Positions 10,041 to 44,893 of a stretch of DNA of 64,000 bases are shown piece by piece. Position numbers and translations under genes: made by a program. Below the pieces are notes generated by a model, which saw only the letters and a list, made by a program, of their open reading frames with translations, had not been told where the DNA came from and made no database searches. Position 1 is the stretch's first letter; the number at the start of each line of letters is the position of its first letter. The DNA is from Acidimicrobiia bacterium. Its GTDB lineage: Bacteria; Actinomycetota; Acidimicrobiia; Acidimicrobiales; Aldehydirespiratoraceae. Where the stretch lies: contig JAHQYN010000003.1 of the NCBI GenBank assembly GCA_024421085.1, positions 4,721 through 68,720 of the forward strand, in the 5' to 3' direction.

Positions 10041-13000
10041 GTGACGGCAACCGACGCCTCTGAACAGCACGGTCCCAACGACTGGCTGATCGACGAGATG
10101 CGGGCGCGTTGGAACGCAGACCCGGCTTCGGTGGACCACGAGTGGCGGGTGATTTTCGACGGCGAGAACGGAACCCGTACCGCTGCGACGACCTCAGCCT
10201 CCACCCTGATAGAAACCACCGCCCGCAGCATCACCGCCGACCCGCACCCGCCCCGTCAACCACCTGCGGCGGCTCCGGCCCCGCCTGGAACCGGCACAGT
10301 CCCGCCGCGTCAACCACCTGCGGCGGCTCCGGCCCCCCCCGGAACCGGCACAGGCCCGCGCCCCCCCCCCCCCCTTCCCCCGACTGCCGCGGCTCCGGTT
10401 GCGCCCGGAACCGGCACAGTCCCGCCGCGTCAACCGACTGCGGCGGCTCCGGTTGCGCCCGGAACCGGCACAGCTCCGATCAGGGGCAGCGGGGCGCGCA
10501 TCGTGGCCAACATGGAAGCGTCGCTCGGCGTGCCCACGGCCACCAGTTTCCGGGAGGTCCCGGCGAAGCTCCTCGAAGTCAACCGCAAGATCATCAACGG
10601 CTACCTCGGACGCAAGATGTCCGACAAGGTCTCCTTCACGCACCTCATCGGCTACGCGGTCGTGCGGGCGATCGCCGATGAGATGCCGGTCATGAACAAC
10701 TCGTTCAGTGAGGGCCCCGACGGGGGCCCCACACTGGTGCGCAACCCGCATGTGGCTCTCGGCGTCGCAGTCGACATCGCCAAGTCAGACGGCTCCCGCA
10801 CGCTCATGGTCCCCTGCATCAAGCAGGCCGACACCCTCAACTTCCGGGAGTTCGCCAACCGCTACGAAGACACGATCCGCCGTGTCCGCAACAACGAGTT
10901 AAGCCCCGACGACCTCACCGGCACGACCGTCACCCTCACCAACCCGGGCACCATCGGCACGCTGCAGTCCGTGCCCAGGCTGATGCCGGGCCAGGGCCTC
11001 ATCGTCGGGGTCGGCACGATCGCCTACCCCACCGGCTTCGAAGCCGCGGATCCCGCCACTCTGGCCGATCTCGGGCTCTCGAAGGTCGTCACGATCACCT
11101 CCACCTACGACCATCGGATCATCCAGGGCGCCGAGTCCGGGATGTTCCTGCGCAAGGTCCATGACCTGCTGCTCGGCAGCGACGACTTCTACGTCAAGGT
11201 CTTCCAGTCGCTGGAAGTTCCCTACGAGGCGGTCCAATGGCGCCGCGATGTCAATCCGGTCGACCGCGAGGGGTCACTGCTCGAGAAGCAGGCCAAGGTC
11301 AACCAACTGATCAACATGTACCGGGTCCGCGGCCACCTCATCGCCGACCTCGACCCGCTGCAGGTCAAAGAGCCCAAGATGCACGCCGAGCTCGACCCGG
11401 CGACCTACGGGCTCACCATCTGGGACCTCGACCGCGAGTTCCTCACCGGCACCGACACGGGCATCTATGCGATGGTCGGCGACACCCCGAAGATGGCTCT
11501 GGGCGACCTGCTCGGCGTGTTGCGCGATGCCTACTGCCGAACGGTCGGCGTCGAGTACATGCACATCCAGGACCCGGTGGAGAAGCGCTGGATGCAGGAG
11601 CAGCTCGAGGGGGCAGACTCCCACATCGAGCCCGACGAGCAGCGTCACATCCTCAGCCGGCTCAACGCCGCCGAAGCACTTGAGACGTTCCTCGGCACGA
11701 AATACCTGGGTCAGAAGCGGTTCGGCATCGAGGGGGCCGAGAGCACGATCCCGCTCGTCGATGGGGTGCTCGGCGCTGCGGCAGACAGCCGCATGGCCGG
11801 CGCGGTGATGGGCATGGCGCACCGGGGCCGCCTGAACGTGCTGGTCAACATCGTCGGCAAGACCTACAAGGAGCTCTTCATTGAGTTCGAGGGGGGCGAC
11901 ATCGAGCAGATGACCCAGGGGTCCGGCGATGTCAAGTACCACCTCGGCCAGAAGGGGGTCTTCGTGAGCCGCAACGGCAACGAGCTCCCCCTGGAGCTGG
12001 CCGCCAACCCGAGCCACCTCGAAGCCGTCGATCCGGTCGTGGTGGGGATGGCTCGGGCGCAGATGGACCTGATCGACCCCGAGAGCGGATACGGCAGGTT
12101 CCCGGTCCTGCCGCTGCTGATCCACGGCGACGCAGCCTTCGCGGGGCAGGGGGTGGTCGCCGAGACCCTCAACCTCTCGCAGATTCAGGGATACCGGGTG
12201 GGCGGCACGATCCATGTGATCATCAACAACCAACTCGGCTTCACAACCACGCCGGACGTGGCCCGCTCCTCGGAGTACTCCACAGACGTGGCCAAGATGA
12301 TCCAGGCACCGATCTTCCATGTCAACGGCGACGACCCCGAAGCCTGCGTGCGCGTGGCCCGCCTGGCGTTCGCCTACCGTCAGCGGTTCAACAAAGATGT
12401 CGTGATCGACATGATCTGCTACCGGCGCCACGGACACAACGAGGGCGACGACCCCAGCTACACACTCCCGGAGATGTATCGCCGGGTCGATGCCCGGCCC
12501 TCGGTGCGGGCCCACTTCACCGAGGCGCTCACCAAGCGCGGTGACCTGACCCCGACGCAGGCCGAGGAGGCCCTAGCGGACTTCCGAGCACGCCTGCAGT
12601 CGGCGCTCGACGAGACACGCGGGATGGCCACCGACCCCGACGCGCGCGCCGCGCACCCACCGCAGCCCGTCGGCGTCCTGCCCCATGTGCGAACCTCCAT
12701 AGACCACGTCAGCGTGCAGCGGATCTACCGGGCGCTGTCGATCATGCCCGACGGGTTCACGCTCCACCCCAAGCTCGCCGTGCAGTTCGAGAAGCGCGAC
12801 GAGATGTTCTCAGCCGGCGAGGTCGACTGGGCGTTGGCCGAAGCGATGGCCCTCGGCTCGCTGCTGCTGGAGGGCAACAGCATCCGGCTCGCGGGCCAGG
12901 ACACCCGCCGCGGCACCTTCAGCCACCGTCACTCGACACTGGTCGACTACCAGACCAGCGCCGAGTACGTGCCGTTGGCGACCCTCGCCTCCGGAGACAC

Positions 13001-31718: not shown

Positions 31719-32678
31719 CTATCGCAGCATCTCGGCGCGGACCAGGTTCTCGAGGACATCGTCCGGTTCGATGCTATCGATCCAACGGACGAGTCCTTCC
31801 GCGTCGATAAGGGCGACGACCTGTTGGCTTTGGGCGTACTTGAGTGTTTGGTCACGGGCATCGCTGGTGAAAGTGGATGCCGAGAAGAGGATGCCCACGC
31901 GAGCGACCCCCGTGCGGTCCTGAACCTTCGAGTGGAGATCCCGCACCTCCTTTGCGGTGACGCTGGCTGACCAGTTCTTCGCCTCGATGAGGACGAACGG
32001 TACGTGTAGCTGCCAGCATCTCGACGACCAGTTGTCGACCTGCAGGACTAGGTCGACTTCATCTGTGCTGCCGCGGAGGTTTCGCTCTACCACACGAAAG
32101 TCGGCAACCTGTTGCAACAGAAACGCCAGCAGCCCTTCGAAACGTCGACCTTTCTCGAAGTTCGTGCCCTCCGATCGGAGATCCCAGGCCTTCTTGGCGA
32201 TAGCCGTACGGGTTTCATAGTCGACTGCGACCGCGCAGTCAGACAGAGCAGTCAAGATGTGAGCGCGCCCCGAGGGAGATCCACCCGGTTTAACCACGAT
32301 GACCTCGGCATCGATCGCTCCGAGGAACCGGACTGTGTCGCTCTCGTACAGAGCGTCGAGCCGAAGTGTGACGACGACTGAGCAGCCCACCTGTTGCGCC
32401 ATTGCAAGCCGGGCTTGCATGTGGGGTCGCAGCTCGTCGGCAATGTGGACGTACAGAACGAGGTCGGGATCGCCGGCACCGACCAATGACGGCCGCCAGG
32501 CCATACCCTTCTCGGAGCGGATCGCCTCCCCCGACTCGGACCAGTCGGAAGTCGCCAACAGTGCCTTGACTATGGGCTCGCTTGTCGGGCCGACCATAGA
32601 CTCCGGGATCTCGATGCCCTCCGGTTCGAGATCCTCGTCCGCGTAGGGCAGTTCGTCCTCGTTGCCAAACTCACTCAC
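31719..32678 (-). CDS. restriction endonuclease, Mrr-cat type PD-(D/E)xK C-terminal domain
   Basis: FEGLLAFLL...STDEVDLVLQV...FVLIEAKNW (D...ExK). The N-terminal ~150 aa is unassigned. Its start overlaps the ParB-like stop by 8 nt. Confidence 0.7.
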   Translation of the reverse strand: MSEFGNEDELPYADEDLEPEGIEIPESMVGPTSEPIVKALLATSDWSESGEAIRSEKGMAWRPSLVGAGDPDLVLYVHIADELRPHMQARLAMAQQVGCSVVVTLRLDALYESDTVRFLGAIDAEVIVVKPGGSPSGRAHILTALSDCAVAVDYETRTAIAKKAWDLRSEGTNFEKGRRFEGLLAFLLQQVADFRVVERNLRGSTDEVDLVLQVDNWSSRCWQLHVPFVLIEAKNWSASVTAKEVRDLHSKVQDRTGVARVGILFSASTFTSDARDQTLKYAQSQQVVALIDAEGLVRWIDSIEPDDVLENLVRAEMLR

Positions 32679-33663
32679 CGCCGGCGTTCTCCGCGATCAC
32701 TCGCTTGAGTTGCTGGGCGAACCGCTCCGCGATGCCCATGACCATAGCTCGCTCCTCATTGCCCGTAGCCCGCGCGAACAGCCGGTCAAAGCCCTTGATC
32801 ATGTTCTCAGTTGATCGGTCGAGCTTGTCAGCTTCCACCATTATCTGAACGGTGTCTTCATACGCCGTCGCGATCGTGAGATCCGGGTCCTGCAAGAGTC
32901 GGCGGAGCGTGTCGTCGAGCACCGAGTCGTCACTATCAGACGCCTCTGCATCCTTGCCGGCGTAGTTGATGATCGGCCGAACATCCCGGAGCGAGACTGT
33001 GTCGGTGATCGTCCCACCGAGCCGCTTCGCTACAAATGCGCTACGTACCGCATCCTCCCCGAACTCCTCGTGGAGCTTCGGACGCTTGTTTGCCAACGGT
33101 TGGATGACGTTCCGGTGCAGCTCCCAGAACCAGTTGAGCGGAATCGTGCCTTCCTGGATGTAGTGCTGGTACTCGTCCGGCAATTGGACGGCGTACCTGA
33201 GACGCTTCACACGCTCCTGAGACAGGCCAGTCCGGTCGGCGAGAGCTCGATCAGACGGAGTGGCCGCGCCGTCGGCCTTCATCGCATCTTCCAGTTCCCT
33301 GAGTGCGATCGCCGTTGGCATATCGCGCCATGGTTCGCGCATCTGGTGGATGTTGAACATCGAGACAAGATTCTCGATGTCGCCCTTCCGGTCGGTAATG
33401 AGAGCCGGCACCGACTCGAGCCCTAACCGAAGTGCACACCGAAACCTGCGCTCACCATCGATGAGCGTGTACTTCCCATCGTCTTCGGGATACACGACGA
33501 TTGGAACGAGGATGCCCTCCTGGTGAATCGACTCGGCAAGGCGATCAAGCTCTTCCTCGGGGAAGACGAGACGTGGGTTTCGTGGGTTTGCCTGAACGGC
33601 GGTGACAGACAGGTCTTGGACCTGCGCAGCGTTGGGTGGGCCTGAGTCAGTTTGTGAGGACAT
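32671..33663 (-). CDS. ParB/Srx N-terminal domain protein with GERR box and HTH
   Basis: ILVPIVVY...YTLIDGERRFRCAL (GERR box at 33433-33456) followed by an HTH-like ALADRTGLSQERVKRLRY. Start reset to MSSQTDS (33663), overlapping the methylase stop by 17 nt. Confidence 0.8.
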   Translation of the reverse strand: MSSQTDSGPPNAAQVQDLSVTAVQANPRNPRLVFPEEELDRLAESIHQEGILVPIVVYPEDDGKYTLIDGERRFRCALRLGLESVPALITDRKGDIENLVSMFNIHQMREPWRDMPTAIALRELEDAMKADGAATPSDRALADRTGLSQERVKRLRYAVQLPDEYQHYIQEGTIPLNWFWELHRNVIQPLANKRPKLHEEFGEDAVRSAFVAKRLGGTITDTVSLRDVRPIINYAGKDAEASDSDDSVLDDTLRRLLQDPDLTIATAYEDTVQIMVEADKLDRSTENMIKGFDRLFARATGNEERAMVMGIAERFAQQLKRVIAENAGGE

Positions 33664-34852
33664 GGATGAACTCTGTGTTGTCGTTGGTGCTCGCGCCCTT
33701 GGATGCGCCGAGTGTGGAGTGCTTGGTGGCGAACGAGCGAGTGATGATCGTGCGAAAGTGCTTCGTAGCGAGGTCGCGAATATCAGTTCCGCGGCGAGAG
33801 AGAAGACTTCGCTCGGGATAGCTGAGGACGAGCGGGAACCCAAGCTCCGACACGCCCCGGAGCAAGTCTTCAAAGGCGCTCTCGACTGAGCCGCTCTCTG
33901 AAAACTTCGACGAGAATCTCCCAGCGCGGTAGCGACCCCGACCGATCGAGTCCGGGAAGTCGTAGAGAAAAAGGGTCTCGTGGACGTGGTAATAGCGCGA
34001 GTACTGATCCTTCGTGTACGGCGGATCCGCGTACACCGCTCGGACCTGATCCGACTTGAGCTGCGGCAGCAGATCTAGAGCGTCGCCGTTCTGAAACTCA
34101 TTCTGGACCCTCCACGCCGGCGAGCCGGATGGTGCGAACTCCGCCAAGGTATCCACAAACACCGACCACACGTCTCGCCGCCACACCCTCACAATCCTCT
34201 TCTGGGCGGCCTCGGAGTTCGGGCGCAAGAATTGGGCAGAGTGACCAGGGCTATTGAGACAACGATCCACCGTGCCGAGGAAGGCAGCGAGTGCCTGATC
34301 ATGGCTGCGCTCGTCATCGAGCGAGGCGATGGCATAGCGGATTGCGTCGAGCTGTACGGCCTGCCAGGTGGAGAAGTAACCGCCAGAGAAATAGAGCACC
34401 GTCAGGCAGTACCTCCCGGGCCCGCGGCGACGCGCGGCCAGCCGAGCCTGTCGCCTGCACTCGTCGGACGTGCCGACATGCGGCACGTCCTCCATGTAGG
34501 CGAGAAGATCTGATGGCCTCCTAAGGAGTACATCTCGCTCGTGCTGTAGACGACCGTCGAACTCAACGGCGAGAGCCTTGCATCGCGCCTCATAGTGTGG
34601 TGCCAGTTGGTCCAGGAGACGGAACGGCGCAACCCGCTCCTCGTGGACGAACCGCGATCGAAGTAGCGGGCCGAGGAAGGCGCTCGCGTCATTCATGACG
34701 ACTGAAGCGACGCCATCCAACTCAGAGGTAGCTGCCCCGGTGCCGCAGAAGAGGTCCACAACACGTGCGCTCGCATGCCTCGGTGGGAGATCGGAGATGA
34801 TTTGTGCAACGGGGTCAGCCAGGAACCGCTTGGTCCCCATGTAGCGAATCAT
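33647..34852 (-). CDS. D12-class (Dam-like) N6-adenine DNA methyltransferase
   Basis: N-terminal YMGTKRFL...VVDLFCGTGA and motif IV VYADPPYTKDQY. Confidence 0.85.
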   Translation of the reverse strand: MIRYMGTKRFLADPVAQIISDLPPRHASARVVDLFCGTGAATSELDGVASVVMNDASAFLGPLLRSRFVHEERVAPFRLLDQLAPHYEARCKALAVEFDGRLQHERDVLLRRPSDLLAYMEDVPHVGTSDECRRQARLAARRRGPGRYCLTVLYFSGGYFSTWQAVQLDAIRYAIASLDDERSHDQALAAFLGTVDRCLNSPGHSAQFLRPNSEAAQKRIVRVWRRDVWSVFVDTLAEFAPSGSPAWRVQNEFQNGDALDLLPQLKSDQVRAVYADPPYTKDQYSRYYHVHETLFLYDFPDSIGRGRYRAGRFSSKFSESGSVESAFEDLLRGVSELGFPLVLSYPERSLLSRRGTDIRDLATKHFRTIITRSFATKHSTLGASKGASTNDNTEFIHVLTN

Positions 34853-35220
34853 CTGCAGCTCGCCCCACGACTCAGTTCGAGGCCACGTACTAGTTCGCCC
34901 GGGTCAATCGACAAATGGCGCGCTAGCACGAGAAGCGTATGAAGCGTCACGTTCTTTTCGCCACGCTCTATGTGACCCATGTAGCTCCTGTCGATGTGGC
35001 ACTCCAAAGCGAACGCCTCCTGCTAGTAGCCCTGACCGGAGCGTAGGGCCCTGATACGACGGCCTAGCTTAGCTGCAGCATTCGCCGCGTCGAACGCGGC
35101 CGTCGTCTCGGCGACGGTGGCGATGCGCTCGGGCAGCGCGTTGACTGCTACCTGGGCAGCGTCGTCACCGTACGGACACCCGCCGAGCCCGTCTGCGACA
35201 GCAATCATCCACGATCCGTC
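34849..35220 (-). pseudogene. XRE/controller-type HTH gene interrupted by an in-frame TAG and fused to a PP2C-like fragment
   Basis: The frame reads ...[60 protein letters not shown].... The TAG (35023-35025) sits where S/T of a GLSQE-type helix normally lies. The stop overlaps the methylase ATG (ATGA). No own start codon is seen near the HTH. Confidence 0.55.
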
Positions 35221-35813
35221 AGCCTGGATCCACCGGTGTGGTGCGGTGTTGGGGTGTGGGGTGTCCACTAGAAAGGCCTCCTCACATGGGAGAATGCTGT
35301 CGTTGGAGACAGGCATTTCGAACATGTGAGGAGGCACTTCCTGTGAGCCGCATATCTGGTGGGATTGATGGGGTGGAGGTTCATTTCGATGACGGGTCTT
35401 TGGTGGGGGATGCGGGTTTGTCGTTGGCGGGCACGGTGATGGATCGTTTGGGGCTTGAGGCGATGGTTGATGAGGTGGTGCGTCCGCCGAGTTCGGGGCG
35501 GGGGTCGGGCGCGAAGGCGTTGTCTGTGGTGGCGTCGATGCTTGTGGGCGGTTCGTTCATCGACGACGCTGACAGGCTGCGGTCGGGGTCAACAGCTCAG
35601 GTGCTGCCCGTTGAGGTGTCGGCGCCGTCGACTTTGGGAACGTGGCTGCGGTCGTTCACGTTTGGGCATCTGCGCCAGTTCGACCGTGCTCAGGAACTGG
35701 CGTTGGGGCGGGCGTGGTCTGTGGGCGCGGCACCTGGCTCGCCTTCCAAGCGGGCTGGCGGCTCGGTGACGCGGCCGGGAGCGGCCCAACCGCGAGCGCC
35801 CCAAGATAGGTGA
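35221..35813 (+). mobile_element. 5' portion of an IS1380-family element: terminal sequence copy B, 12-bp inverted-repeat hairpin, truncated transposase
   Basis: From GTG 35343: VSRISGGIDGVEVHFDDGSLVGDAGLSLAGTVMDRLGLEAMV...SMLVGGSFIDDADRLR resembles an IS1380 transposase N-terminus, with only ~135 aa of homology. cctcctcacatg (35277-35288) pairs with catgtgaggagg (35323-35334). Confidence 0.65.
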
Positions 35814-36986: not shown

Positions 36987-37778
36987 GTGCAGCACGCGAT
37001 ATTTGTGGCGCCGTTCGGGCCCTTCGCAGACCCCCATCGCCTCATGGACCTCGGTCGGGCCGTGGAGGAGTCAGGGTGGGACGGACTCTACCTGTGGGAC
37101 CATGTGCTGCGTCCCGAGAGCAACGAGATCATCGACACCTGGATCGCGCTGGCAGCCCTGGCAACGGCCACGCGGCGGCTCCGTCTCGGTCCGATGGTCA
37201 CACCGCTGCCGCGCCGCCGCCTGATCAAGCTGGTGCGGGAGGTGCTGACGGTCGATCTGCTGAGTGAGGGCCGCTTGACGCTCGGTGTCGGATCCGGCAC
37301 CGACACAGGCGGCGAACTGGCCCGTTTCGACGAGGTTATCGATCCGCGGATCCGCGGCCGGCATCTCGATGAGGGCCTCGGTATCGTTGACAGGCTGCTC
37401 AAGGGAGAGTTCGTGGTCCATTTCGGCGAGCATTTCACCGTGGACGGCGTGTCGGCGGAGCCCCCTACGGTGCAGCGGCCCCGCCCGCCGATCTGGTGCG
37501 CGGCCCGGGGCACCGCAATGAGACCGGTGCGCCGGGCGGCGCGCTACGAGGGGATGTTCCCGATCGAGGTGGACCGCGACAGCTTTCGTCGGGCTCTCGA
37601 CGAGGTAGTCGCGGTGCGCGGCAGCCTCGACGGGTTCGACGTCTGTCTGCGGACCGAGTTCGACGGTACACCGCCGTCGTTCGCAGACCAGGGAGCAACC
37701 TGGCTCCTGCGCTCCTTCCCGGCTGTGACAGACCCGGCGACCGTGTTCGACGCGGTGATCAGCGGCCCGCCGCGCTGA
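36987..37778 (+). CDS. LLM-class F420-dependent oxidoreductase
   Basis: Luciferase-like features (GWDGLYLWDHV..., LGVGSG...). Confidence 0.75.
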   Translation: MQHAIFVAPFGPFADPHRLMDLGRAVEESGWDGLYLWDHVLRPESNEIIDTWIALAALATATRRLRLGPMVTPLPRRRLIKLVREVLTVDLLSEGRLTLGVGSGTDTGGELARFDEVIDPRIRGRHLDEGLGIVDRLLKGEFVVHFGEHFTVDGVSAEPPTVQRPRPPIWCAARGTAMRPVRRAARYEGMFPIEVDRDSFRRALDEVVAVRGSLDGFDVCLRTEFDGTPPSFADQGATWLLRSFPAVTDPATVFDAVISGPPR

Positions 37779-37876
37779 GCGGTCAGACCCCTCGCATCCG
37801 CGTCTTCGGCGAGTCCGCAGCTGCGATGAACGGGTCGGGTTCGGGCGCGGCTGCTTCGGGCAGATAGATTGCGGCT

Positions 37877-39433
37877 GTGGTTGACCAGTCAATGAGCGCC
37901 AAGCTCGACGATCTTCGTGATCGCAAGGATCAAGCGCTGCGTGCAGGCTCTGAGCGCTCCGTCTCGCGCCAGCACAACAAAGGCAAGATGCTGGCCCGGG
38001 AGCGAATCGACTACCTGCTCGATGAGGGCTCTTTCAACGAACTCGACATGCTGGCCCGTCACCGGGCGCACGAAGCCGGACTGGCGGAGCGCCCCTACAC
38101 CGACGGGGTCATCACCGGTTGGGGAACCGTCGACGGGCGCAAGGTGTTCGTGTTCTCACAGGACTTCACGGTCATGGGTGGCGCGCTCGGTGAAGTCTTC
38201 GCGGAGAAACTCCACAAGGTGATGGACCTAGCGCTGGCCACCGGAGCGCCGATGATCGGGCTCAACGACGGTGCCGGTGCCCGTATCCAGGAGGGTGTCG
38301 TTTCGCTCGACGGCTACGGCGGCATCTTCTTCCGCAACGTCCAGGCCTCGGGGGTCATCCCGCAGATCTCGGTGATCCTCGGCCCCTGCGCCGGGGGCGC
38401 GGTCTACAGCCCGGCCATGACCGACTTCATTTTGATGGTGCGCGAGAAGTCGCACATGTTCATCACCGGTCCCGACGTCGTGAAGACGGTCACCGGTGAG
38501 GAGGTGTCGCTCGAGGAGCTCGGCGGAGCGGGCAGTCACGCCAGCAAGTCGGGCGTCGCCACGTTCGTCGCCGACTCCGAGGAGCAGGTGCTCGACGAGG
38601 TCAAGGACCTGTTGAGTTTCCTGCCGTCCAACAATCTCGATCAGACCCCCCGGGTCGAGTCCAGCGACGATCCTGACCGCCTCTGCCCCGAACTCGACGA
38701 GATCCTGCCGGACAGCCCCAACGTGCCCTACGACATGAAGCTGGTGATCGCCTCCGTTGTCGACGACGGCGACTTCATGGAGTACCACGCCAGTTGGGGT
38801 CGCAGCATCACCTGCGGTTTCGCCCGTGTGGACGGACGGGCCGTCGGCGTCGTCGGCAACCAGCCGATGATGCTGGCCGGCGTGCTCGACATCGACTCGT
38901 CGGAGAAGGCCGCCCGCTTCGTTCGCACCTGCGACGCCTTCAACATCCCGCTGCTGACCTTCGTTGACGTCCCCGGCTTCCTGCCCGGTGTCGACCAGGA
39001 GTACGGGGGCATCATCCGGCACGGGGCGAAACTCCTGTACGCCTACTGCGAGGCGACCGTGCCGCGCATCCAGGTCATTACCCGCAAGGCGTACGGCGGT
39101 GCCTATGTGGTGATGGACTCGAAATCGGTGGGTTCAGACCTGTCGTTCGCCTGGCCGACCGCAGAGCTCGCGGTGATGGGCCCGCAGGGCGCGGTGGAGA
39201 TTCTCTACCGACGTGAACTGGCAGACGCGGCCGACGCGGACTCGCGCCGCACCGAGCTGATCGACGATTACACCGACCGTTTGGCGAATCCCTATGTCGC
39301 CGCCGAGCGCGGCTATGTGGACGACGTGATCGAGCCGTCGCAGACCCGCCAGAAGGTCGTGGCAGGGTTCCAGTTGCTCGAGTCGAAACGCGAGGAGTTG
39401 CCGGAGCGCAAGCACGGCAACGTGCCCCTGTAG
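37877..39433 (+). CDS. accD: acyl-CoA carboxylase carboxyltransferase (beta) subunit, AccD5/PccB type
   Basis: Full-length carboxyltransferase domain pair, with a typical ...KHGNVPL C-terminus. Confidence 0.9.
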
Positions 39434-39471
39434 GGGCGCTCAAGGCCGACCGCCGCGAGTAGTGTGGACTC

Positions 39472-42294
39472 ATGGTCGCCGCCGACACCGATACTTGGGA
39501 CTACCCCGGCGCACGCTGGTGGAGGTTTGATTTTCACACACACACGCCGGCTTCGTGCGACTATCGGAACAACGAGGTGAGACACGACGAGTGGCTGCTG
39601 GGATTCATGCGAGCCGGCATTGATTGCGTCGCCGTCACAGATCACAACTCCTGCGCTTGGGTGGACGGGCTCAAATCGGCACTGGTCCGGATCGAAGAGG
39701 AACGGCACCCTGACTTCCGGCGACTTCATCTTTTTCCTGGTGTCGAAATCACCGCGAACGACGGTACACATGTGCTCGCTCTCTTCGATCCGAGCAGGGC
39801 ATCAAGCGACGTGGACCGACTATTGGGCGCAGTGGGCTACCAAGGAGTTTCAGGCAAGAGCGATCGGGCCGCCGACAGCTCGGTGGCCCAGATCGGGAAA
39901 GTAGTCGGTGAACACGGGGGCATTGCAATCCCCGCCCACGTTGACCAAGCCCGGGGCCTGTGGCGGATGCCGGGAAATACGCTGAAGCCGGTGCTAACCG
40001 CTAATTCCGTGTTCGCTGTCGAAGTCGTGGACCCGACCGAAGCGAAACCAGACCTCGTCCACCAGCACGCGTCGCACTGGGCAGAAGTGCTCGGCTCGGA
40101 TACGCATGGTCTCGCCGGAGGAGCCGTTAACGTGCCGGGGTCCCGCTACACATGGATAAAGATGGAACGGCCGTCCATTGAGGGTCTACGCTTGGCGCTG
40201 CTTGACGGTATAGGGTTCTCTGTTCGGCGGAGCGACGACCCGGATCAACCCGACCAATCCTTGCCCAAGCATCATGTGAAAGCGATCTCTATTTCCAAAG
40301 CGCGGTTGATGGGGAACGGAGAACCTGTCAAGCTTGAATTCAGCCCGTGGCTCAACGTGCTCGTCGGCGGTCGCGGGACTGGCAAGTCGACTGTTCTGAA
40401 CTGTACGCGACTCGCCGCGAGACGCGAGGCCGACCTGGACCGACTCGATGAAAACAGCATTTCCAGGAGCACGTTTGATCGATTCAACAATGTACCGCGC
40501 ACCCGCGACGACGATGGAGGCCTCAGGGAAGACACCCGCATCGAGTTGGTGGTTTCACGAGACAGTGTGACCCATCGGATTAGTTGGGATCAAGCGCCGA
40601 AGCCTGATGCTAATGTTGTCGAGACTCAGGATGATGAGCACGAATGGACCGCTTCAACCTCGCAAATAGTCAATGCCGATCGATTTCCCATTCGGGTGTT
40701 CAACCAAGGCCAAATTGCCGAATTAGCAAGCGACAACCAGGCTGCGCTGCTGGACCTGATCGATGAAGGTGCGAGCAGCGAAGACTGCCAACGTAAGCTG
40801 GAAACGGCGCGTCGCACATTCTTAGCTACACGTGCACGAATTCGCGAGATTCAGGTTGAACTAGAGCGGACCGAGGAGGTGAAGGTCGCTCTTGAGGACA
40901 CTGTTCGGGCGCTCTCGCGGATCGAGGAAGCGGGATACGCAACCGCGTTTCAGGCCTTTCGTGAAACTGAACGTCAGGAACGCGAGATTGAACGGCATTT
41001 CGCTGTCGCAGAGCAATCGGTCACCCAAATCGACCGGGTCGCCGATCAGATTCAATCTGAAGACATTCTGGAGGCCGTCTTTGATGAAAATCCCAGCAAT
41101 GGCAGTGAGCGCTCTGCACTAGACATTGTGGAATCGCTGCGCTGTGTTGTTGACGATGCCAAGACGGCACTGCGCGAAGCAAGCGCCGCTGCGCACGGAG
41201 TCATCAAGCAACAGCGGGAGACGTTGCAGACGAGTCCGTGGCGTTCCAAAACAAGACAGGCGCAGGCTGCGTACGATCTAGCAGTAGAGACACTCGCACA
41301 AGCTGGCCTCGGCGACGCCAGATCGCATGCTGAATTGGTTCAGGAGCACCAGGAGTTGAATTCCGAACGGGACCGCCTCGCCGAACTGCGTCTAGAACTC
41401 GGCGAGACGCAAGAGCGAGCGAACGAACAATTGGGAGAGCTGCTCCAGGCTCGTCGCGCGCTTAGTGATGTCCGATCGAAGTTCCTTAGCGAAACCCTCG
41501 CGCATAGTGATTACGTGCAAATCCGGCTTGTGCCGTATGGTGACAATCCACGAACGATCGCGCGCTCGCTGAGAGACGCCCTCGGTATCGCCGACGATCA
41601 TCGATTCCTTGATGATATCGGCAACACGGATGAATCAAGTTCCGACTCGGGTCTTGTACACGGTTTGATCGACAGTCTTCCCCGAGATCCCGAAGAGCGA
41701 CGCATCGAGTTTGAGAAGCGGTTGGAGTCGACGCGTCAAGAGATTGTCGAGTCCGTCGAGAGCGATGAAGGATTCGGCGGGCACTTTATCAACTATCTCC
41801 AACGTCAACACGATCGCAGCGAGGATTTCGTAGATCGGATGCTGACGTGGTTTCCACCAGACAGCCTGAATGTGAAGCACAGCCTCGCTGCCGATGGAAA
41901 AGAGTTCAGGCCGATCGGGCAGGGTTCAGCAGGTCAGCGATCCGCCGCAATGTTGGCATTCTTGCTTGCGCACGGTGATGAACCGCTGGTGCTCGACCAA
42001 CCTGAGGACGACTTGGACAACCAACTCATCTTCGACCTCGTTGTCAGGCAGATGAGCGAAAACAAGTTGCGCCGCCAGATCATCGTCGTTACTCATAATC
42101 CAAACATCGTGGTGAACGGCGATGCCGAGATGCTGCACGTTTTTGACTTCAAGAACGGCCAGTGCATCGTCGCGGAATCAGGTTCACTGCAGAATGTCGA
42201 GATGCGTGAGCAGGTATGCAAGGTTGTGGAAGGTGGCCGGTTCGCCCTTGAACAGCGGTATCGGCGGCTGGAAGCAGGTCGCTTCAATGCTTGA
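39472..42294 (+). CDS. PHP-domain phosphoesterase fused to a Rad50/SMC-like ABC ATPase (940 aa)
   Basis: PHP motifs FDFHTHTPAS, VAVTDHN, IPAHVD, GSDTHG. Walker A GGRGTGKST (40366-40392). A long helical spacer, a signature-like SAGQRS, Walker B LVLDQPEDDLD, and VVTHNPN. Confidence 0.85.
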   Translation: MVAADTDTWDYPGARWWRFDFHTHTPASCDYRNNEVRHDEWLLGFMRAGIDCVAVTDHNSCAWVDGLKSALVRIEEERHPDFRRLHLFPGVEITANDGTHVLALFDPSRASSDVDRLLGAVGYQGVSGKSDRAADSSVAQIGKVVGEHGGIAIPAHVDQARGLWRMPGNTLKPVLTANSVFAVEVVDPTEAKPDLVHQHASHWAEVLGSDTHGLAGGAVNVPGSRYTWIKMERPSIEGLRLALLDGIGFSVRRSDDPDQPDQSLPKHHVKAISISKARLMGNGEPVKLEFSPWLNVLVGGRGTGKSTVLNCTRLAARREADLDRLDENSISRSTFDRFNNVPRTRDDDGGLREDTRIELVVSRDSVTHRISWDQAPKPDANVVETQDDEHEWTASTSQIVNADRFPIRVFNQGQIAELASDNQAALLDLIDEGASSEDCQRKLETARRTFLATRARIREIQVELERTEEVKVALEDTVRALSRIEEAGYATAFQAFRETERQEREIERHFAVAEQSVTQIDRVADQIQSEDILEAVFDENPSNGSERSALDIVESLRCVVDDAKTALREASAAAHGVIKQQRETLQTSPWRSKTRQAQAAYDLAVETLAQAGLGDARSHAELVQEHQELNSERDRLAELRLELGETQERANEQLGELLQARRALSDVRSKFLSETLAHSDYVQIRLVPYGDNPRTIARSLRDALGIADDHRFLDDIGNTDESSSDSGLVHGLIDSLPRDPEERRIEFEKRLESTRQEIVESVESDEGFGGHFINYLQRQHDRSEDFVDRMLTWFPPDSLNVKHSLAADGKEFRPIGQGSAGQRSAAMLAFLLAHGDEPLVLDQPEDDLDNQLIFDLVVRQMSENKLRRQIIVVTHNPNIVVNGDAEMLHVFDFKNGQCIVAESGSLQNVEMREQVCKVVEGGRFALEQRYRRLEAGRFNA

Positions 42295-43573
42295 CAATCG
42301 CGGTGAATTGCTTGAGGCGATTCGACTGGGCGAGACCAGCTTTCTTGAACTCAAAGAAGTACGCTTCTCAGGACTCAAGGTTGCAGGCCCGTCTCGCGAT
42401 GATCTGGCGGATGAAATCGCGGCATTCGCGAACAGCCGGGGCGGAGTACTCGTTCTCGGAGTAGAGGACAGCTCCCGTGACATCATCGGTGTCCCCGATG
42501 ACAGGCTTGATGCTGTTGTCAACTTCGCGAAGGAAATTTGCAACGACTCCATCACTCCGCCGGTCGAGCAGTTCGTGTTGGATCGAGTGTCGCTGCCTTC
42601 CGCTACCGGGCGCATGGCAAGCGTCGTGAAACTTGAGGTGCCACGGAGCCTCTTTGTGCACCGTAGCCCGGGGGGATACTGGCATCGTGCCGGTGACTCG
42701 AAACGAATCATGACGCCAGATTTGTTGGCTCGGCTCTTTCAACAACGCAGTCAGACGCGGCTGATCCGGTTTGATGAGCAAGCCGTGACCAACGCGCGCA
42801 TCGGTGATCTCTCAGAGGAGTTGTGGGCGCGATTCCGCACCCCGCGTTCGGACCATGAACCGGAAACGTTCTTGGCCAAACTCGGTATGGCCGTGCGAGC
42901 CCACGATGGCGCTGTCAGGCCGTCAGTTGCGGGAGTTCTGATAGGCAGCGACGCACCCGAACAATGGTTACCGAACGCATATGTGCAAGCAGTGGCGTAT
43001 CGGGGCACGTCGGTCCTCCCCGAAAGCGTCGCCATGAACTATCAACTCGACGCGTCTGACTTCACTGGACCGTTGGATCGGCAGGTCATCGAGGCCAGTC
43101 GATTCGTCTCCAAGAACATGCGTCAGGGCGCATCCAAGGTAGTCGGACGTGTCGACGAACCCCAATTCGACATGGCTGCCGTATTCGAGGCGTTGGTGAA
43201 CGCTGTCGCTCACCGAGACTACGCGATCCACGGAGCGAAGATACGGCTGCGCCTCTTCGATGACAGACTGGAACTGTTCTCGCCCGGTGCGTTGGCGAAC
43301 TCGTTGACAGTCGACTCGTTGCGGTACCGCCAGACGGCGCGCAACGAAACGGTATGCAGTCTGCTGACGCGATGTACCGCGCCTGACGAGCCGTGGTTGA
43401 CCATCGGTCGTGCACACCTGATGGAAAAACGCGGCGAGGGAGTGCCGATAATACTCGACAGCAGCACGGCGCTCTCGGGGCGCGAACCCGAATACCGCGT
43501 GCTCGACGATGCGGAGCTGATGCTGACCATACACTCCGCGAACAAGAACCCATCGGTGGCTGACGGTGGTTGA
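42287..43573 (+). CDS. AlbA_2 (Schlafen-like) domain protein with C-terminal HATPase_c_4-like domain
   Basis: ETSFLELKEV...EIAAFANSRGGVLVLGVEDSSRDIIGV (AlbA_2) and VFEALVNAVAHRDYAIHGAKIRLRLFDDRLELFSPGAL. Start reset to MLDNRGELL, overlapping the upstream stop by 8 nt. Confidence 0.8.
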   Translation: MLDNRGELLEAIRLGETSFLELKEVRFSGLKVAGPSRDDLADEIAAFANSRGGVLVLGVEDSSRDIIGVPDDRLDAVVNFAKEICNDSITPPVEQFVLDRVSLPSATGRMASVVKLEVPRSLFVHRSPGGYWHRAGDSKRIMTPDLLARLFQQRSQTRLIRFDEQAVTNARIGDLSEELWARFRTPRSDHEPETFLAKLGMAVRAHDGAVRPSVAGVLIGSDAPEQWLPNAYVQAVAYRGTSVLPESVAMNYQLDASDFTGPLDRQVIEASRFVSKNMRQGASKVVGRVDEPQFDMAAVFEALVNAVAHRDYAIHGAKIRLRLFDDRLELFSPGALANSLTVDSLRYRQTARNETVCSLLTRCTAPDEPWLTIGRAHLMEKRGEGVPIILDSSTALSGREPEYRVLDDAELMLTIHSANKNPSVADGG

Positions 43574-43580
43574 GCACTCA

Positions 43581-43661
43581 ATGAACGTCAAACGCGACGA
43601 TCTTCGTGAACGCAGGGACCAAGCATTGAGCGCGGGCTCGCAGATCGGACCGTTGCGATGA
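43581..43661 (+). pseudogene. 26-codon relic of a second accD-like carboxyltransferase gene
   Basis: MNVKRDDLRERRDQALSAGSQ resembles the AccD N-terminus [21 protein letters not shown] at 37892. The terminal IGPLR* resembles GNVPL*. Its stop overlaps the accE ATG (ATGA). Confidence 0.4.
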
Positions 43662-43828
43662 TCGAGGTCTCACCGGCACCGACTGAGGAGGAGGCGGCAG
43701 CCATTCTGGCGGCCTACGAACTGTTGTGGCCCCGACCTGGCGCTGCCAACCCCCCGCAGCCCGTGTCTCGATGGCGTTTCGCGGGTCGCCGCTGGTCTAC
43801 CCGCCCCGGTCACGGCGGTTGGACATAA
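43658..43828 (+). CDS. accE: acyl-CoA carboxylase epsilon subunit (56 aa; shorter than any ORF listed in the track)
   Basis: MIEVSPAPTEEEAAAILAAYELLW...SRWRFAGRRWSTRPGHGGWT resembles epsilon subunits (PTxEELAA... then Trp/Arg-rich tail). Confidence 0.6.
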   Translation: MIEVSPAPTEEEAAAILAAYELLWPRPGAANPPQPVSRWRFAGRRWSTRPGHGGWT

Positions 43829-43939
43829 CCGTTCACCACTGTTCAGCCGACCGGGCCGACTCAGCCGGAGGCCAGCAGTTCCAGAATCGCCGGTCCGCAG
43901 GTCAGAGGCCGGTTGCATCCAACTCTGGTTCTTGCGGAC

Positions 43940-44893
43940 TCAGTCCGCTGACCGGATCTGGGAGCGCAGGTCGGCGAGCCAACGGGCGGATTCTTTGGTG
44001 CCGACACGGTTGTTCTCCTGCTCCTCCTCGGTCCCGTAGGCAGACGGGTAGGAACCTAGGAACTTCACGACGTGTCGCTGCTGGTGGAGACTGCGCAGAG
44101 CGTCGCCGACCACTTCGTTGGCAATGTGGCCTTCGCAGTCGATCAGGAAGCAGTAGTCGCCGAGCGCGCTTCGGGTCGGCCGACTCTCCAGCTTGGTGAG
44201 GTTGATGCGGCGTGCCGCGAACTCTTGCAGAATGCTGATCAGCGAGCCTGGTTGATCAGCCCGTTGGAAGACCACGATCGAAGTCTTGTCGTGACCGGTC
44301 GGTTCGCTGATGCCCTCGCTGGCGACGAGCACGAAGCGGGTCTGGTTGTCGGGGTGGTCTTCAATGTCCGCCGCCAACGTCTCGAGTCCGTAGACCTCGG
44401 CGGCGCGTTGCGGAGCGATCGCGGCCGTGTCCCGCCGTTGCGATTCTGCCAGTTCACGGGCGGCGTCCGCCGTGGAGTTCGTTGCCTCAATGGTCGCCCA
44501 CGACATTTTGTTGCGCAGGAACTGACGGCACTGCGCGTAGGCCATCGGGAAGGAACGGACAGTCTTGACGCCATCTAGGCGCACCCCGGGCTGCACCAGC
44601 AGATTGAGGTTGATGTTGATCACCACTTCGCGCTGAATCAGCAGGTCGGCATCGAAGGCGAGTGTGTCGATCGTGGCGTTGACCGATCCTTCGATCATGT
44701 TCTCGATCGCCGCGAAGCCGTAGTCGATCCCCCCAGTCTCCGTTGCAGTCAGCACATCAACGATCGAACCGAACCGACGGTGGTTCATCTCCACGAGGTC
44801 GGGCTGGGTGTGGAGCGCCTGTTCGGTGAAGGTGCCGCGCGGTCCGAGGTAGCACACGACCGGCTTGTCCAACGGCGATTCGTTCACGCCCAA
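43940..44893 (-). CDS. pheA: prephenate dehydratase
   Basis: YLGPRGTFTEQA, plus an ACT domain with TKLESRPT. Confidence 0.9.
   Translation of the reverse strand: MGVNESPLDKPVVCYLGPRGTFTEQALHTQPDLVEMNHRRFGSIVDVLTATETGGIDYGFAAIENMIEGSVNATIDTLAFDADLLIQREVVININLNLLVQPGVRLDGVKTVRSFPMAYAQCRQFLRNKMSWATIEATNSTADAARELAESQRRDTAAIAPQRAAEVYGLETLAADIEDHPDNQTRFVLVASEGISEPTGHDKTSIVVFQRADQPGSLISILQEFAARRINLTKLESRPTRSALGDYCFLIDCEGHIANEVVGDALRSLHQQRHVVKFLGSYPSAYGTEEEQENNRVGTKESARWLADLRSQIRSAD

Follow-up and report, generated by a model that had tools for sequence, protein, structure and literature searches.

Three separately published topics, the Ppl exonuclease, the bacterial Schlafen/GHKL tRNases and the temperature restriction locus (TRL) of Photorhabdus, converge on one widespread gene pair, trlF-trlG. 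We describe here a distant representative of this pair, found in a 64,000-nucleotide (nt) stretch of DNA (hereafter the window) from the Acidimicrobiia bacterium assembly GCA_024421085.1 (contig JAHQYN010000003.1, positions 4,721 to 68,720 of the forward strand). Ppl is a single-gene anti-phage system in which a PHP domain is joined to an ATPase and which alone protects Escherichia coli (Gao et al. 2020, as cited). It acts as a 3'-5' exonuclease on single-stranded DNA (ssDNA), is inhibited by nucleoside triphosphates (NTPs) bound to its PHP and NTPase domains, and becomes active when nucleotides are depleted and 3'-OH ends are present (PMC12904381). Prokaryotic Schlafens (pSlfn) are phage-activated tRNases, some of which protect as single proteins, and Schlafen plus GHKL is their commonest stand-alone architecture (PMC13056530). 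Phage-activated tRNA cleavage is known only for RorSlfn5, RzAgo and Cash. The 'Schlatpase' supradomain was defined for SLFN-pAgo (RzAgo) and for thousands of stand-alone proteins; in SLFN-pAgo, binding of ATP to the PF13749 GHKL domain leads to tetramerisation and an active Schlafen nuclease (bioRxiv 10.64898/2026.05.29.728809).

TrlF was named in the trlR-trlF-trlG operon that constitutes the TRL of Photorhabdus laumondii (Hapeshi et al. 2020, PMC7554251). The phenotype of this locus is growth arrest at 36 C, and transcription of the operon is raised by a shift to higher temperature and on entry into stationary phase (PMC7554251). Sixteen distinct suppressor events of the arrest all lay in trlG, where both domains were hit, and none in the approximately twofold larger trlF; deletion of the whole operon was tolerated, and the difference in virulence between an S16N trlG point mutant and the operon deletion was read by the authors as interplay between the genes (PMC7554251). 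In the same study Photorhabdus TrlG, misannotated as RecG, was found to carry AlbA_2 (residues 14-128) and HATPase_c_4 (residues 298-365), TrlF was annotated as 'histidinol phosphatase', and a syntenic TRL operon was reported on the Yersinia ruckeri plasmid pYR3 (PMC7554251).

Based on the homology of both proteins to TrlF and TrlG of pYR3, we assign the window pair to this already described two-gene family, of which it is a distant member. The initial annotation of the window had presented the pairing as undescribed and obligate, and the genes as an uncharacterised two-component defence system. The latter phrase remains a fair functional description, but the gene pair itself is already on record as trlF-trlG of the Photorhabdus TRL, and either gene is also found without the other.

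Relationship of the two genes to TrlF and TrlG

The two genes encode proteins of 940 and 428 amino acids (aa) and overlap by 8 nt, as first annotated (Table 1). Products of the same lengths are called independently on three public contigs with an identical gene 2. Gene 1 scored 564.8 bits against the NCBIfam TrlF equivalog (NF045780; curated cut-off 350), with residues 13-933 spanning profile positions 2-943 of 944, and this cut-off is also passed by paired and solo relatives. Against the NCBIfam equivalog Ppl_antiphage (NF042955) it scored 527.3 bits, under the curated cut-off of 1000. The PADLOC Ppl hidden Markov model (HMM) gave a collinear full-length match (2.1e-133, residues 13-933), which bears out the link to Ppl drawn in the initial annotation; since this model is less stringent and does match, PADLOC-type tools would label gene 1 'Ppl'.

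In pYR3 (NZ_LN681230, 51241-55699) the operon consists of trlR (79 aa, HTH_73), a TrlF of 875 aa and a TrlG of 382 aa with AlbA_2 and HATPase_c_4, and trlF and trlG overlap by 22 nt. The window has the same arrangement of trlF followed by trlG, co-oriented and overlapping, with AlbA_2 and HATPase_c_4 in TrlG. Window TrlF is 26-34% identical to pYR3 TrlF in the PHP/Walker A and C-terminal head regions (E=5e-24 and 4e-18), and the two TrlG proteins are 26% identical over 338 residues (E=3e-29). They differ in that the C-terminus of window TrlG is ~45 aa longer, in that its catalytic motif reads E-x4-E-x-K whereas that of pYR3 TrlG reads E-x4-Q-x-K (E14-x4-Q19-x-K21; locus L085, 4551-5699), and in the host, an Acidimicrobiales metagenome-assembled genome (MAG) and not a gammaproteobacterium. 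Since the second catalytic residue is Gln in canonical TRL-type TrlG, it is uncertain whether that protein is competent as a nuclease. A tblastn search with pYR3 TrlR gave no match in the window or in the 80 surveyed loci, and no conserved small open reading frame (ORF) was seen upstream. A second, solo TrlF-family gene is also present on pYR3, beside an Abi-family gene (L085 47202-50000; pYR3 97202-101333).

Direct positional mapping of the Photorhabdus TrlG mutations onto 60 TrlG sequences failed because the window clade is too distant, and it succeeded with pYR3 TrlG as a bridge. Ten of the 13 mutated Photorhabdus residues are present at the corresponding positions of pYR3 TrlG, which was therefore accepted as a valid proxy. 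Through it, the loss-of-function substitution S16N corresponds to S18 of window TrlG, inside the ExxxxExK motif, and N335D to the invariant GHKL residue N353.

The N-terminus of TrlF is assigned the PHP fold, a distorted TIM-barrel. Its metal ligands (D20, H22, H24, D57, H58, E92, H100, H156, D210 and H212) are invariant or at least 90% conserved in sets of 19 and 58 homologues. An AlphaFold2 (AF2) model of residues 1-270 reached a predicted local distance difference test (pLDDT) score of 86.7 and a predicted template-modelling (pTM) score of 0.88, and the top Foldseek matches in the PDB (2anu, 7ug9, 9etk, 5zb8, 3f2c and 4jom; E 5.5e-10 to 5e-5; template-modelling scores up to 0.64) were PHP enzymes, namely TM0559, RNase AM, EndoQ and the PHP domains of Pol III/PolC. 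The Pfam PHP profile matched neither the full protein nor residues 1-270 alone at E<=1, and a profile search of PDB sequences with TrlF recovered no PHP protein. The NCBIfam CehA/McbA metallohydrolase match was sub-threshold (2e-10; 40.6 bits against a cut-off of 80). The assignment holds because of the conserved ligands, the fold matches and this sub-threshold hit, and not through the Pfam HMM; the PHP motifs recognised at the outset thus stood, whereas the expected Pfam match was not obtained.

The remainder of TrlF forms an ATP-binding cassette (ABC) head, in which Pfam recognised AAA_21, AAA_23 and SMC_N (ATPase parts only). The Walker A, SAGQRS, LVLDQPEDD and THNPN motifs noted initially are all present and conserved in homologues, and they follow one another in canonical order (299-307, 819-823, D842, H875), split by an insert. 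Between Walker A and the signature this insert measures ~510 aa (~480 aa in the initial annotation), the sole indication of its presumed helicity being profile matches to SMC coiled-coil-proximal segments. Inspection of residues 310-818 found no CxxC zinc hook. Profile matches of the head in the PDB were to the heads of SMC3, Smc, Rad50 and AriA; no solved Ppl or TrlF structure was recovered by sequence or profile search of the PDB.

In ABC ATPases the catalytic Glu normally lies directly after the Walker B Asp. The corresponding position in TrlF is Gln843 (DQPE), which is invariant family-wide, and DQPEDD is also found in pYR3 TrlF. The exchange of the catalytic Glu for Gln throughout the family suggests a head that serves as a nucleotide-sensing switch and not as a motor, with nucleotide binding rather than fast hydrolysis. 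The DQPE sequence resembles the E->Q substitution that is used experimentally to trap ABC or AriA heads in the ATP-bound state. Two relatives (P0076 and P0095) are fusions of ~1453 aa in which an ADP-ribosylglycohydrolase domain (PF03747) lies N-terminal to a full TrlF.

TrlG consists of two parts, a Schlafen domain whose E-x4-E-x-K site is intact and a GHKL ATPase, an arrangement known as 'Schlatpase'. Pfam placed SLFN_AlbA_2 at residues 16-142 (1e-14) and HATPase_c_4 at residues 316-409 (2.8e-17), so that the profile matches expected from the initial annotation (AAA_23/SMC_N, AlbA_2 and HATPase_c_4) were all obtained. In a set of 60 TrlG sequences E16, E21, K23 and D61 each show conservation of 95% or more. 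In the TrlG family profile the segments GETSFLELK and LGVED align with the catalytic segments of SLFN8, SLFN14, SLFN5, SLFN12 and SLFN11, the counterparts in SLFN14 and SLFN8 being ESTHVEFK and GVDD. The GHKL region has thirteen invariant residues (E301, N305, H309, R310, D311, Y312, S332, P333, R352, N353, R382, G383 and G385). An AF2 model of full-length TrlG (pLDDT 79) matched 3lmm (AlbA_2-HATPase_c_4) over its whole length, as well as the Schlafen lobes of SLFN5/11/12/13/14 and the GHKL kinases PDK (PDK4) and HK853.

Distribution and genomic setting of the pair

In a forward survey with one genome per GTDB species, 80 TrlF relatives of 31-93% identity were collected from >15 phyla. The survey was seeded with the motifs DQPEDDLD and VVNGDAEM, so that its fractions describe one TrlF clade and are not a census. 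A TrlG homologue lies directly downstream of TrlF on the same strand in 61 of the 80, and the junction measures -17 to +7 nt in all 61 pairs, with the -8 nt of the window recurring in 21. Pairwise identities of TrlF and TrlG are correlated (r = 0.80-0.91), TrlG being the more conserved (mean identity 54-57%, against 41% for TrlF). The reverse survey covered 80 metagenomic loci of close TrlG relatives (56-63% identity), 77 of them with enough upstream sequence, and TrlF was found upstream of TrlG in 49 of these 77. The pair is thus conserved, passed on jointly in many phyla, and not a chance neighbourhood. Pairing is the predominant state and is not obligate as had been supposed: 19 of the 80 TrlF relatives (~23%) are without TrlG, and 28 of the 77 TrlG loci (~36%) are without TrlF within ~4.5 kb upstream, five of these 28 following a large N6-methyltransferase. 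In the sampled clade the pairing is probably ancestral.

The genomic contexts of related pairs vary. The TrlF family is recorded on 938 plasmids, and its members are also found alone, behind helicase or methylase genes, or inside type I restriction-modification (RM) operons. One homologous pair lies on a plasmid of the culturable Burkholderia thailandensis (NZ_CP068711, 208982-213074). In four loci (L005 5453-6763, L053 5561-6877, L050 1243-2595 and L056 1100-2350) TrlF has TrlG downstream and a second, divergent Schlafen-GHKL-like ORF upstream; these are possibly a three-gene variant. In four metagenomic loci (L091, L132, L142 and L143) close TrlG homologues without TrlF stand directly behind an N6-methyltransferase of ~1000 aa (BREX- or type IIG-like), which suggests an exchange of the Schlafen-GHKL module among defence systems; in L142 the TrlG homologue also precedes another large ORF. 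Lastly, the TrlF relative of a Ca. Azotimanducaceae MAG (L009 6848-9811) is divided into two ORFs, either by a frameshift or because it is a pseudogene, and lacks a TrlG.

Within the window, the trlF-trlG pair is compositionally foreign. Its lower GC content, remarked on initially, was confirmed: the GC content is 0.573 for trlF and 0.592 for trlG, and GC at third codon positions (GC3) is 0.62 and 0.67, below the 0.75-0.86 of the flanking genes. The two-gene cassette was horizontally acquired. It begins 38 nt after the end of an intact acyl-CoA carboxylase carboxyltransferase gene, accD, and is followed by the remains of a second accD copy, whose GTG overlaps the trlG stop by 8 nt. The insertion between accD and accE described in the initial annotation is therefore correct in outline, but the 74-nt relic had been missed and the match of the 56-aa accE-like ORF is weak (E=0.5). 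On one public contig that ORF is annotated as a gene, and a convergent prephenate dehydratase gene comes next. The same locus is present at 93% identity on a related MAG chromosome (L001, OZ224042.1), which has a larger accD relic at the matching site (11096-11425), composed of 216 nt of the 5' end and 112 nt of the 3' end. It follows that accD lay on both sides of trlF-trlG in the ancestor, in the order accD - trlF - trlG - accD - accE, and that the second copy decayed independently in the two lineages. Duplication and Campbell-type integration are candidate origins of a cassette bracketed by an intact and a decayed accD.

A functional tie of trlF-trlG to the acyl-CoA carboxylase was considered and rejected, because related pairs occupy unrelated genomic contexts. 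What is odd locally is confined to the position between intact and decayed carboxyltransferase copies; otherwise this is an ordinary acquired defence cassette. A promoter and terminator scan of 37500-44500 gave nothing useful. A second foreign-looking islet (31719-35813, GC3 0.69-0.74) lies 4.6 kb upstream of the pair and encodes Mrr-type, ParB_N and methyltransferase proteins (Table 1). Sponge-associated lineages (Ca. Poriferisodalis, Poriferisocius, Poriferihabitaceae, Poribacteria and Spongiihabitans) account for many of the closest relatives, and the host organism may be a sponge symbiont.

Table 1 Features of the trlF-trlG locus and its surroundings, in window positions
Feature	Position	Strand	Detail
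trlF-like gene 1	39472..42294	+	940 aa; TGA at 42292-42294; supported by ORF, TrlF_fam_ATP, PADLOC Ppl and Pfam
trlG-like gene 2	42287..43573	+	428 aa; ATG at 42287-42289; SLFN_AlbA_2 and HATPase_c_4
Overlap of trlF stop and trlG start	42287..42294	+	8 nt, ATGCTTGA
PHP-fold phosphoesterase domain, TrlF residues 1-270	39472..40281	+	Ligands and AF2/Foldseek
Walker A/P-loop GGRGTGKST, TrlF residues 299-307	40366..40392	+	G299-T307 invariant
ABC signature SAGQRS, TrlF residues 819-824	41926..41943	+	S819-R823 invariant; aligns with AriA and SMC signature region
Walker B region LVLDQPEDD, TrlF residues 839-847	41986..42012	+	D842, Q843, P844, E845, D846 and D847 invariant
H-loop THNPN, TrlF residues 874-878	42091..42105	+	T874-N878 invariant
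Schlafen catalytic motif E16-x4-E21-x-K23 (ETSFLELK) of TrlG	42332..42355	+	Third acidic residue D61 at 42467-42469
GHKL ATPase region, TrlG residues ~293-416	43163..43534	+	N-box FEALVNAVAHRDY (300-312), SPG (332-334), RN (352-353), RGEGV (382-386)
Intact acyl-CoA carboxylase carboxyltransferase (accD, PccB/AccD5-like)	37877..39433	+	Carboxyl_trans 6.6e-203; mmdA subfamily 799 bits
Relic, 5' end of second accD copy	43566..43639	+	74 nt, 81% identical to 37877-37950
Probable acyl-CoA carboxylase epsilon subunit (accE), 56-aa ORF	43658..43828	+	ACC_epsilon E=0.5, nearly whole profile covered
Mrr_cat restriction endonuclease (Mrr-type)	31719-32678	-	Islet member
ParB_N-domain protein	32671-33873	-	Islet member
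D12-class N6-adenine methyltransferase	33647-34852	-	Islet member
Weak DDE-transposase fragment	35238-35813		Beside the Mrr/ParB_N/methyltransferase islet

Proposed function and competing explanations

We consider the pair to be a TrlF-TrlG module that was acquired horizontally and belongs, as a distant member, to the TRL family, and most probably a mobile system directed against phages or other mobile genetic elements, a reading to which we give a probability of about 0.55. Its mobility is indicated by the foreign GC3, the differing contexts of relatives, the 938 plasmids and the islet upstream. Several observations weigh against the reading. Either gene can occur without the other, solo and paired TrlFs are intermingled in a neighbour-joining tree, and comparison of paired with solo TrlFs revealed no group-specific conserved patch that could be a TrlG-binding surface, only three scattered columns. 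The correlated identities may reflect mere co-transfer, and the forward survey is biased towards one TrlF clade because it was seeded with motifs. Canonical TrlG shares only ~26% identity with the window clade, which has no trlR and a different catalytic motif, so that any transfer of the Photorhabdus genetics to this clade is indirect. Moreover, the sole phenotype recorded for the TRL is temperature restriction, for which its authors draw no link to phages (PMC7554251), and two pSlfn-HisKinase systems gave E. coli no protection against the panel used (PMC13056530). A literature search, which was not exhaustive, found no phage, plasmid or biochemical test of any TrlF-TrlG pair; the only paper it found to connect Ppl or TrlF to a Schlafen partner was the TRL paper.

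For the mechanism we propose the following scheme. Like E. coli Ppl, TrlF would be a 3'-5' ssDNA exonuclease held off by bound NTPs, and phage infection, by depleting nucleotides and creating free 3'-OH ends, would release it. Binding of ATP to the GHKL domain of TrlG would lead to oligomerisation and an active Schlafen RNase, as in SLFN-pAgo, and this RNase would cut tRNA and stop growth, forming an abortive-infection arm. The Photorhabdus genetics suggest that TrlG is a growth-arresting effector which would not need TrlF activity, because none of the 16 suppressors fell in trlF, an outcome with a probability of ~0.3^16 if loss of trlF gave an equal phenotype. Most likely TrlF senses the trigger, restrains TrlG or does both, as AriA does with AriB in PARIS; in the most economical form of the model it would read DNA ends and nucleotide status, degrade foreign DNA and gate TrlG. 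Restraint of TrlG by TrlF would account both for the unleashing of TrlG by heat and for the absence of trlF mutants, and the tight translational coupling suggests a fixed TrlF:TrlG stoichiometry. Taken to its full extent, the scheme is one of coupled dual-nuclease immunity, in which an SMC-like, nucleotide-sensing PHP exonuclease (TrlF) restrains a Schlafen-GHKL tRNase (TrlG) until infection sets it free, and in which the temperature restriction of Photorhabdus is heat-triggered autoimmunity. We put this forward tentatively, as a possibility that is more likely wrong than right in its full form.

A rival reading is that trlF and trlG are two defence systems of one gene each, the first a Ppl-type nuclease and the second a pSlfn-GHKL tRNase, which sense and act autonomously, travel together in defence islands and share no mechanism. 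Ppl and single Schlafens each protect on their own, Schlafen plus GHKL being the commonest stand-alone pSlfn, and autonomy would agree with the lack of TrlG at 19 of 80 TrlF loci and of TrlF at 28 of 77 TrlG loci, with the interspersed solo TrlFs and the lack of pairing-specific conservation in TrlF, and with a Photorhabdus growth arrest that requires TrlG and apparently not TrlF. Mere neighbours in a defence island would, however, be unusual in keeping one order, one strand and a junction of -17 to +7 nt in 61 of 61 pairs from phyla ranging from Acidimicrobiia to Latescibacterota. No other gene recurs at the TrlG position, and the virulence difference between the S16N trlG mutant and the operon deletion was read by its authors as interplay (PMC7554251). 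We therefore regard full autonomy as unlikely, though deserving of consideration.

The same Photorhabdus data could be read as physiology, with the pair acting as a stress or temperature brake on replication or translation, or as an SbcCD-type DNA-end repair activity with its regulator. The only experimental phenotype is indeed the 36 C arrest, with transcription rising on temperature upshift and in stationary phase; TrlF resembles Rad50/SMC heads, PHP domains serve in repair and proofreading, and annotations routinely give AlbA_2/HATPase_c_4 proteins a DNA-binding or regulatory role. Such a role sits poorly with a patchy, strain-specific distribution on plasmids and beside RM, Abi, toxin-antitoxin and recombinase genes, with the foreign composition of the pair in the window genome, and with the absence of a conserved housekeeping context, the pair here interrupting a lipid-metabolism operon; the closest characterised relatives of both genes are, moreover, anti-phage effectors. 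We judge it improbable. Least probable in our view is that TrlG is a nucleic-acid-binding regulator or sensor, its Schlafen fold binding RNA or DNA and its GHKL domain acting as a switch, which controls TrlF as the only effector. The Gln at the second catalytic position of canonical pYR3 TrlG (E-x4-Q-x-K) and the RefSeq name of that protein, 'RNA-binding domain-containing protein', favour such a role, as does the higher conservation of TrlG, which is expected for a part in contact with a conserved host or nucleic-acid ligand. It is opposed by the conservation of E16, E21, K23 and D61 in the window clade, and by the relief of the Photorhabdus arrest through loss of TrlG with no trlF mutants, the opposite of what TrlF as sole effector would give.

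Were the two proteins of this probable anti-phage module functionally coupled, the growth-temperature limit of an insect pathogen would be a case of defence-system autoimmunity, Ppl-type immunity would gain a second, RNA-directed arm, and the partner gene would escape automated 'Ppl' calls in roughly three of every four sampled relatives. Were the dual-nuclease scheme true, most Ppl-family genes outside enterobacterial plasmids would belong to a two-gene system that catalogues score as single-gene Ppl. Our non-exhaustive literature search found no paper that links coupled two-nuclease immunity with Photorhabdus temperature restriction as autoimmunity.

Comparison with Ppl, Schlatpases, PARIS and SbcCD

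With Ppl, TrlF of the window shares the PHP nuclease, the split ABC head and a collinear match over its full length. Ppl is a single gene, whereas the window trlF is translationally coupled to a Schlafen-GHKL gene and falls under the Ppl equivalog cut-off. TrlG in turn shares with the Schlatpases and pSlfn proteins an AlbA_2 domain with the E-x4-(E/D)-x-K site and a C-terminal PF13749 GHKL domain, and it aligns to residues 55-426 of a PADLOC pAgo model (1.4e-17). It differs from them as a stand-alone protein of 428 aa, with no Argonaute, Ig-like or DUF262 sensor domain, and in its recurrent partner, a PHP-ABC protein; this linkage is absent from PMC13056530 and bioRxiv 10.64898/2026.05.29.728809.

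PARIS is a possible analogue of TrlF-TrlG, in which AriA, an ABC ATPase with a coiled-coil insert, is encoded beside the tRNA-directed nuclease AriB. AriA was the best PDB sequence match of the C-terminal head of TrlF and was also matched in PADLOC. The likeness is limited to the ABC head motifs (E ~1e-3 to 1e-4). A PHP nuclease is missing from AriA, and AriB is a DUF4435/Toprim protein whereas TrlG is Schlafen-GHKL; for TrlF-TrlG, sequestration and release are hypothetical.

The initial annotation had likened gene 1 to a single-chain SbcCD in which a PHP nuclease takes the place of the usual one, and this analogy is reasonable given the PHP fold fused to a Rad50/SMC-type head. What TrlF has in common with SbcCD and Mre11-Rad50 is a split ABC head that holds a long insert, together with a metal-dependent DNA-end nuclease. 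In TrlF, however, the nuclease has the PHP and not the calcineurin fold, DQPE replaces DE, the CxxC hook is missing, and both functions are carried by one chain.

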